A stretch of DNA of 64,000 nt from Escherichia coli (GCF_001677475.2 NZ_CP015229.1); one strand, 5' to 3'. Counted from the stretch's first letter, positions 21,864-38,508 are shown. The notes: generated by a model not told the origin, from the sequence alone. Made by a program: numbers and translations.

Positions 21864-22283
21864 TTATCTCTCAAGTTCGTTCAGCGCATTTTTGACACGC
21901 TCTCTTAAACCGGCTTTCTCGTCACTTTCTTCTACAGTATTTTCTTCGTCTTCAGAAGAAGAGGGAGCATTCTCAACCGCGACGCCTTGGTCATCTTCCT
22001 CCTCGACGGATTCGACGACGGGGAGTGGCTGTTTTTTGAAGAAATAGTGTTGTGTTGATTGTTTAAAAGCGGGCGTTTCAGCATCTACAGTGACTTCGGC
22101 TTTTACTATCCAAAGCGCCCATAGCTGCCTGGCATACCCACCAACCAGCACCATTCCTGCAAACCACAGGCAAATCAGTAATAAACAAATGACATATATT
22201 ATGGTGCTGTGTTTTTGTCGGGAGAAGATACCAGGTTGACCTGATTCTTTCTGCTCACGCGCGGCGATATAGAATTCAAACAT
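21864..22283 (-). CDS. gspB: GspB, T2SS accessory protein (ExeB-like single-pass membrane protein with acidic C-terminal tail)
   Basis: 139-aa ORF with hydrophobic segment and Glu/Asp/Ser-rich C-terminus; directly downstream of gspA with 1-nt spacing. Confidence 0.85.
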   Translation of the reverse strand: MFEFYIAAREQKESGQPGIFSRQKHSTIIYVICLLLICLWFAGMVLVGGYARQLWALWIVKAEVTVDAETPAFKQSTQHYFFKKQPLPVVESVEEEDDQGVAVENAPSSSEDEENTVEESDEKAGLRERVKNALNELER

Positions 22284-22284
22284 G

Positions 22285-23754
22285 TCATTTCCCCTTCACT
22301 GTTGTTTCCGGGGAAATATTTGCTTCATCCCGATATAAGTAGGCACTCTCCCCTGCCACCTGCCAGAGATGTACTAACGTTGAAAAGCCAACAACACCGT
22401 CAGTTTTCAAGTGGTGGCTTTTTTGAAATTGCTTTATTTTTTCTACCAACAAGGGCCGCCACTCTGCCGAAGGTTCTGTCGAAATGTGCAATGCGCGGTT
22501 TAACATCGTTTCCAGCCAGAGAATCTCTTCCTCGCTGCTATCACGCGTAATGGTACTCTCCCCTTCCGGCGACATTTTCCATAACAGAAGATAATCACCC
22601 GTCCATACCGACTCAAACCATTGATGTGTCAGCGTCCAGGTTTGCTGCCCTACGAGGACATCAACGGTAGCATCACCTACGCGAACGATCACAACAGGCA
22701 ATTTTTTGTCCCCGACTTTAAGCGATGCGATCCAGGGCAAATTCTGATCTACCAATGTTTGTAAAGAAGCATTCCCACTTTTACATGCCAGCCCCGCTCT
22801 TACTGCCTGATCGCACCAGGCCGAATCGGCTGGGACCTCGTACCCCCATACGCCGTATAACACGCTTAGCGCCTCACTATCGCGCATCACCATATGGGCA
22901 ATATCCATAGTCATATCTTGTTTAACTTCTGGCGTTACGGGTACCAGCCACGCAGGAACGGGTAACGGAGCTGTAAAAGAGGACAGCAGTAGCCAACCAC
23001 AGGTAAGAGCGATAATGGTTCCACTCATCACCACGGCAAGCTGCATTTTCCGGGGACGGTTATCACCCAATATGCGGTAAATCATTCGCCATTGTTTTGC
23101 TGTGAAAACGCTGGTCTGCTCGGCTTGCTGTAATAAGCGAATTGTTTCGCCGGCAAGCGCCAGCTTTCTGCGATCGCCCCGACATAATAAAGCTATCCGT
23201 TTCAGAACTCTGGCGGTTAAAAGGAGATCGGGTTGGTCAATATTCTGACCTTCAAGGATACTAGCCTTAATTTCGTGCTCCGTCAGACGTCCTGTCGAGA
23301 CAAGTTCAATGCCCTGTTTTTTAAAATCACGTTCGACTTTTCGATCGGGTCTGCCGAGCAGCAAAAATTGACCGTCAGGAATAAGAGATATCGCGCGTTG
23401 GAGATCATCAAGTATGCGGCGGTGATTCAGGTGAGCATTTTCAATAATAATAAGAGGGCAGCGACTATCAGTTCGATGAAGCGCATGCAGTAATTGCCCC
23501 GCCATCTCATCTCGCGTCCAGGCGCTGTCACGGCAGCCCTGTTCAGCCGCGTTATCGTCGGTAACAATCCATGCGGCCTTACCTTGCCAGGAAACAACGA
23601 GGCTTAAAGTAATCACACGGCGATGTTTATCTTTTTGTAATTGCTGCGCCAGCCAGGTTTTTCCACTTCCAGCCTCACCCAACAAATAGCACAGACGCCA
23701 GGTCTGACGTTTCTCACGCAACCAGGAAAGAATAACTTCTCTTCTCGTAGACAT
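22285..23754 (-). CDS. gspA: GspA, T2SS accessory ATPase-like protein (ExeA-like; P-loop NTPase plus peptidoglycan-binding region)
   Basis: 489-aa ORF with Walker A GEAGSGKT; divergent from gspC across an AT-rich gap. Confidence 0.88.
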   Translation of the reverse strand: MSTRREVILSWLREKRQTWRLCYLLGEAGSGKTWLAQQLQKDKHRRVITLSLVVSWQGKAAWIVTDDNAAEQGCRDSAWTRDEMAGQLLHALHRTDSRCPLIIIENAHLNHRRILDDLQRAISLIPDGQFLLLGRPDRKVERDFKKQGIELVSTGRLTEHEIKASILEGQNIDQPDLLLTARVLKRIALLCRGDRRKLALAGETIRLLQQAEQTSVFTAKQWRMIYRILGDNRPRKMQLAVVMSGTIIALTCGWLLLSSFTAPLPVPAWLVPVTPEVKQDMTMDIAHMVMRDSEALSVLYGVWGYEVPADSAWCDQAVRAGLACKSGNASLQTLVDQNLPWIASLKVGDKKLPVVIVRVGDATVDVLVGQQTWTLTHQWFESVWTGDYLLLWKMSPEGESTITRDSSEEEILWLETMLNRALHISTEPSAEWRPLLVEKIKQFQKSHHLKTDGVVGFSTLVHLWQVAGESAYLYRDEANISPETTVKGK

Positions 23755-23933
23755 AGAACTTCCTGTTTTAATTATTGATTATCCTTAATCATAAAAATAA
23801 TGTATGTATTTATTAATTAAATACATATTACTAATATAAATAAATTTTGCTTGATTCATGCAAGCGGCATTAATACTATTTATACTAACGTCAATATACA
23901 ACCCACCCAATCTATTTTATTAGAACATACATC

Positions 23934-38217: not shown

Positions 38218-38463
38218 TATAATCCCTTGTGACGTAAAAACTGCAAAACAGAAGTCCTACGCAGGAATTATTTACGTTTTACGAGAACCCTTCAATATGA
38301 ATTAAATTACGGCATTAAAAATAAGAAAAAAGCCTGACAAATGAAGCATTTTAAAAACAGAAACATTCACATTTAAAATATTAAATTGAATTGATATTTT
38401 AAATATGAATAATTTATTCGTTCTGACAGTACGAATAAATTATGCAGTCAACAAATGCAAAAA

Positions 38464-38484
38464 GGGCGCCGAAGCGCCCTTTTC
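38464..38484 (-). terminator. Intrinsic terminator after tufA (end of str operon)
   Basis: Minus-strand GGGCGCTTCGGCGCCC stem-loop followed by TTT, 25 nt after the tufA stop. Confidence 0.75.
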
Positions 38485-38508
38485 AATTCAAAACTAATTA
38501 ACGTGTAA

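Follow-up and report, generated by a model that had tools for sequence, protein, structure and literature searches.

The stretch of Escherichia coli chromosome studied here (64 kb, called the window throughout; all coordinates are window positions) carries at 21864-38508 a block of genes for a type II secretion system (T2SS), the bacterioferritin pair bfr and bfd, and the chitinase gene chiA. The block is enclosed by two ribosomal operons, with rpsJ of the S10 operon on one side and tufA of the str operon on the other. Very probably, it is the T2SS-alpha locus of the E. coli K-12 type, composed of the divergent operons gspAB and gspC-O and the cargo gene chiA located beyond bfd-bfr. The locus as such is already known and belongs to textbook biology, having been characterised in K-12 since 1996-2000. 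The present analysis concerns a frameshift in gspG and the two forms (haplotypes) of the str-S10 gap in E. coli, a long one as in the window and a short one.

Gene content and layout of the locus

K-12 RefSeq gene names were transferred to the window with the help of a listing of open reading frames (ORFs) and a megablast search of positions 21000-40000 against 5426 complete E. coli genomes, a collection from which Shigella and other Escherichia species were excluded. Positions 19500-41500 form a single alignment with the K-12 locus (1-21993) at 98.48% identity and with 2 gaps, collinear with rplB..fusA. The gene order matches the RefSeq annotation of K-12 (gspB, gspA, gspC-O, bfr, bfd, chiA, tuf), and the encoded proteins share 96-100% of their amino acids (aa) with those of K-12. 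The features of the block are listed below; dN/dS is the ratio of nonsynonymous to synonymous substitution rates.

21864-22283, minus strand: gspB, 96% aa identity to K-12 GspB; NCBIfam NF007250 equivalog, 284 bits
22285-23754, minus strand: gspA, 489 aa, 97% aa identity to K-12 GspA
23934-24749, plus strand: gspC; TIGR01713, 289 bits
24733-26685, plus strand: gspD, secretin, ORF of 650 aa, 98% aa identity to K-12 GspD; dN/dS 0.05
26695-28176, plus strand: gspE, ATPase, 99% aa identity to K-12; dN/dS 0.06; Pfam T2SSE on the identical gene in locus L087
28173-29369, plus strand: gspF, inner-membrane platform, K-12 match; ATGA overlap with gspE
29379-29815, plus strand: gspG (major pseudopilin), pseudogene with a 1-bp deletion, 75 aa against 145
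29823-30332, plus strand: gspH, K-12 match
30329-30706, plus strand: gspI, K-12 match; ATGA overlap with gspH
30699-31286, plus strand: gspJ, K-12 match
31279-32262, plus strand: gspK, K-12 match
32277-33440, plus strand: gspL, K-12 match
33437-33898, plus strand: gspM, K-12 match; ATGA overlap with gspL
33898-34575, plus strand: gspO, prepilin peptidase; TAATG junction with gspM; Pfam Peptidase_A24 on the identical gene in locus L085
34579-34598, unstranded: GC-rich hairpin in the convergent gspO/bfr gap, CGGGAGGG-TTCT-CCCTCCCG
34604-35080, minus strand: bfr, bacterioferritin, allele of the long haplotype; TIGR00754, 280 bits; 100% aa identity to K-12
35152-35346, minus strand: bfd, bacterioferritin-associated ferredoxin; NF007803, 143 bits; 88% aa identity to the O157:H7 allele
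35449-35508, minus strand: two terminator-like hairpins 3' of chiA, from the consensus scan only
35515-38217, minus strand: chiA, GH18 chitinase/lysozyme, predicted secreted, 900 aa, 98% aa identity to K-12 ChiA
38509-39693, minus strand: tufA, by transfer of the K-12 annotation

GspC, GspE, GspF, GspL and GspM are all present at K-12 lengths and with 96-99% aa identity, and Pfam T2SSE, T2SSF, T2SSL and T2SSM are recorded on genes identical to gspE, gspF, gspL and gspM of the window. The minor pseudopilins GspH-K and the peptidase GspO are present as well (Pfam N_methyl, GspH, T2SSI, T2SSJ, T2SSK and Peptidase_A24). GspA, GspO, the short GspO' of the short form and ChiA matched no NCBIfam model, which is uninformative and should not be read as a negative result. 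The hairpin between gspO and bfr is a likely bidirectional terminator.

The gene content given for the interval between rpsJ and tufA in the initial annotation of this DNA is borne out by the K-12 match and the identical gene order. The same is true of the ATGA junctions at gspE/F, gspH/I and gspL/M and of the TAATG junction at gspM/O, to which overlaps of gspC/D (17 nucleotides, nt), gspI/J (8 nt) and gspJ/K (8 nt) can be added. The description of gspC-O held only in part: all genes were located, but the cluster is not intact, and the frameshift in gspG, the only gsp gene that has not kept its K-12 length, had been missed.

Compared with T2SS-alpha of K-12 (where chiA is also named yheB), the genes, their order, orientation and chromosomal position are the same at 98.5% nt identity, the 179-bp region between gspA and gspC is identical, and the architecture of ChiA is alike. 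The differences are an intact gspG in K-12 and a ChiA of 897 aa in place of 900 aa. The locus thus fits the K-12 T2SS-alpha family in each tested feature save an intact gspG.

A frameshift in gspG

GspG is the major pseudopilin, and the piston of a T2SS cannot form without it. Among the ORFs of 80 aa or more, none covers gspG of the window, and the frame that starts at 29379 stops after 75 codons (stop codon at 29604-29606). Alignment with K-12 revealed that a single G is missing in the run at 29591-29593 (GGGG to GGG). The product comprises 75 aa instead of 145, and an intact major pseudopilin was not found.

Gene calls give exactly this 75-aa product in at least 24 contigs, which come from NCBI assemblies, Logan runs and an ENA metagenome. 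Two of the carriers checked, contigs L087 and L088, match the window at 99.97-100% identity. Since so many contigs share the product and two of them are nearly identical to the window, the deletion is probably no isolated error of assembly. A 45-nt probe across the deletion had no match in the 5426 complete E. coli genomes. The lesion is therefore fixed in the window's lineage, which lies outside this collection, as at least 24 contigs carry the product and the complete genomes do not. All complete E. coli genomes differ from this lineage by about 1.5%: the best match reaches 98.4% in the block and 98.5% in the flank at 44000-64000, so the block has co-diverged with its surroundings. Downstream of the deletion, gspG is unchanged from about 29621 to the end of the gene, and the lesion is hence judged to be recent.

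The requirement for GspG in T2SS is treated in PMC10841016. Going by the gene sequence, the T2SS of the window's lineage is probably broken and not merely silent, and it would most likely not secrete even if de-repressed. The gsp-dependent secretion of ChiA is predicted to have been lost in this lineage through the gspG lesion.

Other carriers have lesions of their own: in Nissle 1917, gspK is interrupted by an internal stop (L093:10784-11767), in ATCC BAA-2469, gspO is frameshifted (L097:12900-13572), and AMSCJX03 shows an IS1-mediated deletion from gspA' to gspL' (L003:3786-6053); these three lesions are independent of each other. The T2SS is intact in five of the seven full-length carriers sampled. 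GCA_019140575.1, an assembly from the window's own lineage, lacks a gspO call, and its alignment with the window has one gap (L084:4859-5564). The reason may be a further frameshift in the cluster or else a fault of the assembly.

E. coli also has a second T2SS, T2SS-beta (yghJ/sslE-pppA-yghG-gspC-M, pheV), which is the same kind of machine and is likewise variable in the species (PMC3707838, PMC3032704). It differs from the system described here in that it occupies another locus, outside the window, beside a tRNA gene in a hypervariable region, and has SslE/LT as cargo and another pilotin.

Regulation and cargo

Two AT-rich promoter regions of the kind silenced by H-NS had been proposed in the initial annotation (23755-23933 and 38218-38460), and both are extremes of the window.

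23755-23933, unstranded: divergent gspAB/gspC-O promoter region, 22.9% GC, a published H-NS/SlyA target
38218-38456, unstranded: AT-rich chiA promoter region with two AT-rich palindromes, 27-30% GC

They are the two most AT-rich stretches of the 64 kb. The first is among the lowest 0.025% of all 179-nt windows in GC content, and 38218-38460, with 27.2% GC, among the lowest 0.11% of all 243-nt windows. The gspA-gspC region is identical to K-12 at 179 of 179 positions, with the SlyA site TTATATTAGTAA kept; between chiA and tufA, 285 of 291 positions are identical. A scan for promoter and terminator consensus sequences gave 18 promoter-like sites against 20.4 expected in shuffled sequence and so lends no support to promoter positions; only strong hairpins were used from it. 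The two palindromes of the chiA promoter region adjoin each other (38365-38384/38391-38410 and 38406-38425/38427-38446; 20-nt arms, 90% complementary). They could be binding sites of a regulator.

Silencing of the H-NS type at these promoters has been published for K-12, where gspC-O is cryptic and H-NS-repressed and forms the secreton for the endochitinase ChiA; chiA is also silenced by H-NS (PMC5797941). In the same study, SlyA was found to bind the 179-bp gspA-gspC region in an electrophoretic mobility shift assay and to increase gspCDEF transcripts 2.4-fold. PMC3032704, PMC3707838 and PMC11390585 agree with this picture of H-NS, a cryptic T2SS and ChiA. The original K-12 studies (Francetic and Pugsley 1996; Francetic et al. 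2000) are cited in passages of PMC5797941, PMC3032704, PMC3707838 and PMC11390585, and gsp-dependent ChiA secretion in K-12 is credited to Francetic et al. (2000) in passages of PMC5797941 and PMC11390585.

The ChiA protein of the window has a Sec-type signal peptide at its N-terminus, recognised by eye only (MKLNIFTKSMIGMGLVCSALPALA followed by ME). Four CBM5/12-like repeats of 69 aa follow (aa 22-90, 125-193, 226-294 and 337-405), which carry the motif AW..Y..G..Y.NAWW..PW. Pfam CBM_5_12 is found at aa 464-497 (E 1.5e-7) and weakly at aa 418-446 (E 0.11). The GH18 domain covers aa 587-898 (Pfam PF00704, E 1e-9), where the chitinases 9buf (E 2e-46) and 2dsk (E 7e-38) of the PDB also match. 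The signal peptide and carbohydrate-binding repeats that had been noted before were thus recovered, together with the catalytic domain, and the proposal that ChiA is the cargo of the T2SS agrees with the published K-12 work (PMC5797941).

The steps of secretion are established for K-12, and we infer them for the window. ChiA would be Sec-exported to the periplasm through its signal peptide. The GspE ATPase and the GspC/F/L/M platform would build a GspG pseudopilus with a GspHIJK tip, after processing of the pseudopilins by GspO. This pseudopilus would push ChiA through the GspD secretin, whose assembly GspAB would help. Transcription of gspAB, gspC-O and chiA would be silenced by H-NS at the two AT-rich regions, and SlyA could counter the silencing.

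Composition and selection

The comparison of the block with its flanks gave no sign of a foreign composition. The block has 48.6% GC against 50.1% and 52.0% in the flanks. In dinucleotide usage, a distance of 41 separates it from the rest of the window, and one of 38 separates the two flanks. The composition is host-like, and there is no compositional island. As stated in the initial annotation, an integrase, a tRNA and flanking direct repeats are absent: no tRNA occurs in the 64-kb window, no ORF in the block goes beyond the K-12 genes to an integrase or transposase, and no flanking direct repeat exceeds chance, the sole family found at both borders (D3, 20 nt, 80% identical to a third copy) being at chance level.

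Between the window, K-12 and Nissle, dN/dS is 0.12-0.14 for the concatenated gsp genes, 0.04-0.07 for gspD, gspE and gspF, and 0.08-0.16 for chiA. The gsp ratios point to purifying selection, and going by the gsp and chiA values, the T2SS cannot be regarded as a dead relic in E. coli. The synonymous divergence (dS) of the block between the three lineages is 0.06-0.10. The block thus did not arrive recently but has the age of the splits among these E. coli lineages. For gspD, dS is 0.14-0.19 against 0.03-0.12 in its neighbours, an approximately twofold excess that suggests mosaic recombination inside the cluster.

Two further observations were made in the ribosomal gene region and beyond it. 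At gathering thresholds, Rfam gave a single match in the window and none inside the block: Alpha_RBS, the regulatory structure of the alpha operon ribosome-binding site, at 10795-10906 on the minus strand (102.7 bits), which is expected there. The strong strand asymmetry at 48001-49000 (AT skew 0.32, GC skew -0.21) is ordinary, since kefB encodes its hydrophobic membrane domain there on the minus strand.

Two forms of the str-S10 gap in E. coli

The long form, taken as at least 80% of the 19-kb query 21000-40000, is present in 3036 of the 5426 complete E. coli genomes. The short form was found in 2252 genomes at 95% identity or more, and 3155 genomes have the long-form bfr-bfd, which is about 78% identical to that of the short form. 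Values between 80 and 95% identity to the short form occur in only 7 of 5415 records, each counted at its best place. The shares in complete genomes are about 58% for the long form and 42% for the short one, whose sequence varies from 96.7 to 100% among E. coli.

In O157:H7, the interval measures 1532 bp and contains a prepilin-peptidase-like gene of 155 aa, bfr and bfd. Between the long form and that of O157:H7, bfr-bfd is 78% identical at the nt level, and the aa identity is 90% for Bfr, 88% for Bfd and 41% for the peptidase and GspO, while the flanks are 99.4-99.8% identical. This short gap, with the order tufA-bfd-bfr-hopD/gspO'-rpsJ, is that of Salmonella, E. coli phylogroup B1 and O157:H7. 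It shares the flanks and the bfd-bfr/peptidase backbone with the window but spans 1.5 kb in place of 16.6 kb and lacks gspA-M and chiA. The Salmonella gene order bfd-bfr-hopD has been reported in PMC6735719.

The two forms meet common sequence at an operon signal on each side.

21804-21831, minus strand: S10 operon promoter, -10 TATAAT at 21804-21809 and -35 TTGCGT at 21826-21831
38458-38485, minus strand: terminator hairpin of tufA and the str operon, the first sequence common to both haplotypes

The promoter assignment is one that we take from the sequence and the known S10 leader of 172 nt. The left breakpoint lies at 21810/21811, directly upstream of the -10 element; as far as 21810, nothing distinguishes the window from K-12 and O157:H7. 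In the 16-nt spacer, 5 of 16 positions are identical between the haplotypes; the -35 TTGCGT is conserved in both. The right breakpoint, at 38456/38457, is the foot of the tufA terminator hairpin. At both breakpoints, the switch from near-identity to non-homology is sharp.

When 21804-21831 is set against the corresponding region of O157:H7 (L002:3305-3335), the -10 and -35 elements are common to both, whereas 11 of the 16 spacer bases and everything upstream differ. In the long form, gspAB is moreover co-directional with rpsJ, and no terminator-like hairpin was seen on that strand in the 237-bp gap. Because of these features, expression of the S10 operon could differ between the haplotypes.

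The gap in other Enterobacterales

For a wider comparison, proteins of the window were mapped onto 80 Enterobacterales loci that were collected by a Bfr scan with one genome per species; E. coli, other Escherichia and Salmonella were not among them. Wherever the loci reach these genes, the order is tufA-bfd-bfr-rpsJ, and no locus contradicts it. The same backbone has been reported (PMC8046335, PMC6735719), and according to PMC8046335, bfd-bfr was inserted in the ancestor shared by Enterobacterales, Vibrionales, Pasteurellales and relatives. The two genes are ancient residents of the str-S10 gap and not cargo, and their inclusion in an accessory block by the initial annotation cannot be upheld.

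The occupation of the slot between bfr and rpsJ varies. A large gsp cluster stands next to bfr in the same orientation in 12 of the 80 loci (Yokenella, Chimaeribacter, Enterobacter sichuanensis, Citrobacter braakii/amalonaticus, Trabulsiella, UBA5654 and Rahnella). A gspO-like gene is found next to bfr in 27 loci, and for 15 of these there is proof that bfr and rpsJ enclose no other gene. In 34 loci, bfr and rpsJ have nothing between them, and the remaining slots (7/80) were left unassigned. As in the window, the slot clusters of other Enterobacterales run gspO..gspC convergent on bfr, but their GspE is only 60-78% identical to that of E. coli. Chitinase genes occur between tufA and bfd too: a ChiA-like one in Trabulsiella, UBA5654 and Kosakonia oryziphila, one with a ChiA-type catalytic domain in E. 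sichuanensis, and one for a different GH18 protein in Yokenella.

The lone prepilin-peptidase-like genes form intact ORFs between bfr and rpsJ without a T2SS. They mostly encode 151-188 aa and lack the N-terminal part of GspO, which has 254-304 aa at full length in the full clusters of other genera. Examples are O157:H7 (L002:3506-3973) and loci L009, L013, L015, L023, L026-L028, L030, L033, L036, L042, L043 and L052. Their retention across many genera suggests that the gene is still in use, perhaps by another pilus or secretion system.

Of two loci labelled Citrobacter amalonaticus (L011 and L019), one has a full gsp cluster next to bfr, whereas in the other a gspO-like gene is all that follows up to the end of the locus. 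The difference between a long and a short form may thus exist within or between close Citrobacter species. One apparent intergeneric transfer was rejected. Contig DXKH01000010.1 of the "Citrobacter sp." metagenome-assembled genome (MAG) HRGM_Genome_0066 (L004) carries chiA-bfd-bfr-gspO..K, but an E. coli genome (L096) matches it at 99.8% identity, so that an E. coli contig was probably mis-binned in a Citrobacter MAG.

The segment is accessory in the pan-genome sense but not a member of the integrative genomic-island class. The earlier view of an accessory block stands as far as variable presence is concerned (3036/5426) and is not supported as far as a classic acquired island is meant, with bfd-bfr being residents. 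Similarly, synteny of rpsJ..tufA is variable within E. coli, but T2SS clusters occupy the slot in at least eight other genera and the composition is host-like, so that a recently acquired island fails the test that the initial annotation had set.

Origin of the two haplotypes

In a neighbour-joining tree of bfr (474 nt), the short-form gene groups with Citrobacter at 85-87% nt identity. The long-form bfr is at most 81% identical to anything sampled and branches near UBA5654 and Chimaeribacter. The aa identity of Bfr to crown Enterobacteriaceae is 95-99% for the short form and 87-93% for the long form. The long-form GspE is 78% identical to that of UBA5654, an unclassified MAG, and 60-66% to all others (64% to Citrobacter, 60-64% to Yersiniaceae). 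Overall, the T2SS clusters of the slot fall into at least six lineages with GspE mutually 60-70% identical, and those of Enterobacteriaceae are no closer among themselves than to Yersiniaceae. Bfr follows taxonomy, unlike the GspE of the slot.

Because the shared bfr-bfd is only 78% identical between the haplotypes, the simplest reading is that homologous recombination in the near-invariant flanks would have replaced the whole inter-operon segment, the exchange ending at the S10 promoter on one side and at the tufA terminator on the other. Again on the simplest reading, E. coli would owe its long form to an old import. A route of acquisition, which had been called not evident, can thus be proposed. 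Across Enterobacterales, the str-S10 gap might even be an exchangeable cassette slot whose content, bfd-bfr alone or together with a T2SS and a chitinase gene, is swapped between distant lineages by homologous recombination in the hardly varying tufA and rpsJ regions, without mobile-element machinery. This idea, which we put forward tentatively, builds on the 78% identity of bfr-bfd, the breakpoints at the -10 element and the terminator, the star-like GspE identities of 60-70% that ignore taxonomy, and the pair of C. amalonaticus loci. E. coli would then keep two cassettes, about as diverged as different genera, at an intermediate frequency of approximately 58:42.

Alternative explanations

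The T2SS could still function in the window's lineage if the gspG frameshift were an assembly error, were bypassed or were complemented by another major pseudopilin. The deletion does lie in a homopolymer, a classic site of sequencing errors, the remaining gsp genes are intact with low dN/dS against K-12, and the unchanged sequence from about 29621 onwards marks the lesion as recent. This explanation is nevertheless improbable, as the identical truncated product comes from at least 24 contigs of different projects, L087 and L088 match the window at 99.97-100%, a G run of 3-4 nt is too short for efficient slippage, and gspK of Nissle 1917 and gspO of ATCC BAA-2469 have independent single lesions. 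For the block as a whole, the initial annotation leaned towards a classic horizontally acquired island, brought into a contiguous str-S10 junction by site-specific recombination or transposition. Variable presence among E. coli and AT-rich promoters of the H-NS type would suit an island. It is hardly credible, though, for a block with no tRNA, integrase or flanking repeats, with host-like GC and dinucleotide signatures, and with dS of 0.06-0.10 between three E. coli lineages. Moreover, bfd-bfr is in the slot of all Enterobacterales sampled and T2SS clusters are there in at least eight other genera (PMC8046335), and genomes without the block have a 78%-identical alternative segment and not an empty site.

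A simple deletion, by which the long form would be ancestral in E. coli and the other strains would have lost gspA-gspM and chiA, is in accordance with the wording "gspO-rpsJ deletion" in the E. coli W genome paper (PMC3032704). Real internal deletions exist, such as the IS1-mediated one in AMSCJX03, and about 119 genomes (3155 minus 3036) combine a long-type bfr-bfd with a share of the 19-kb query below 80%. A deletion cannot, however, give the 2252 short-form genomes a bfr-bfd with 78% nt identity and a peptidase with 41% aa identity to the long form. Furthermore, Citrobacter, Pluralibacter and Raoultella have lone copies that share 58-65% identity with the gspO-like gene of the short form, and the short form has the Salmonella order bfd-bfr-hopD (PMC6735719), all of which makes a deletion very unlikely. 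The reverse direction of replacement deserves more weight, although we still consider it unlikely: the long form would be ancestral in Escherichia and the short one imported from a Salmonella- or Citrobacter-like relative. Both forms are old in E. coli, with 96.7-100% identity within the short form and dS up to 0.10 within the long one, and the long-form bfr is 80-81% identical to Citrobacter at the nt level. Such values lie in the ordinary range for E. coli-Citrobacter orthologues. On the other side stand the grouping of the short-form bfr with Citrobacter (85-87%), the higher Bfr identity of the short form to crown Enterobacteriaceae (95-99% against 87-93%), and the long-form GspE, which resembles that of Citrobacter (64%) no more than those of Yersiniaceae (60-64%) and has UBA5654 (78%) as its sole near relative.

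Several points weigh against replacement of the ancestral segment by an imported long form and against a broken T2SS in the window's lineage. The direction of replacement rests on one short neighbour-joining tree (bfr, 474 nt) and on identity tables, from a sample without sequence of other Escherichia species and Salmonella. Strong purifying selection alone would also give near-identical flanks, and the recombination endpoints are inferred. A T2SS-beta, if there is one elsewhere in the genome, could in principle supply a pseudopilin. Function and regulation, finally, have been carried over from K-12 on the basis of near-identity.

Implications

The frameshift, the dimorphism of core-gene alleles and the proposed cassette slot are modest additions to a known locus. 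For virulence and pan-genome screens, the lesions in gspG, gspK and gspO mean that calls of "T2SS present" overstate function. A pan-genome genome-wide association study lists bfr and bfd as accessory, with strain frequencies exactly equal to those of gsp and chiA (PMC11390585), and this listing can be traced to the two diverged haplotypes. Studies of this kind probably see two diverged alleles of core genes and not presence or absence. Bounded by a promoter hexamer on one side and a terminator on the other, the two haplotypes would provide a clean example of ultra-conserved operons acting as recombination arms.

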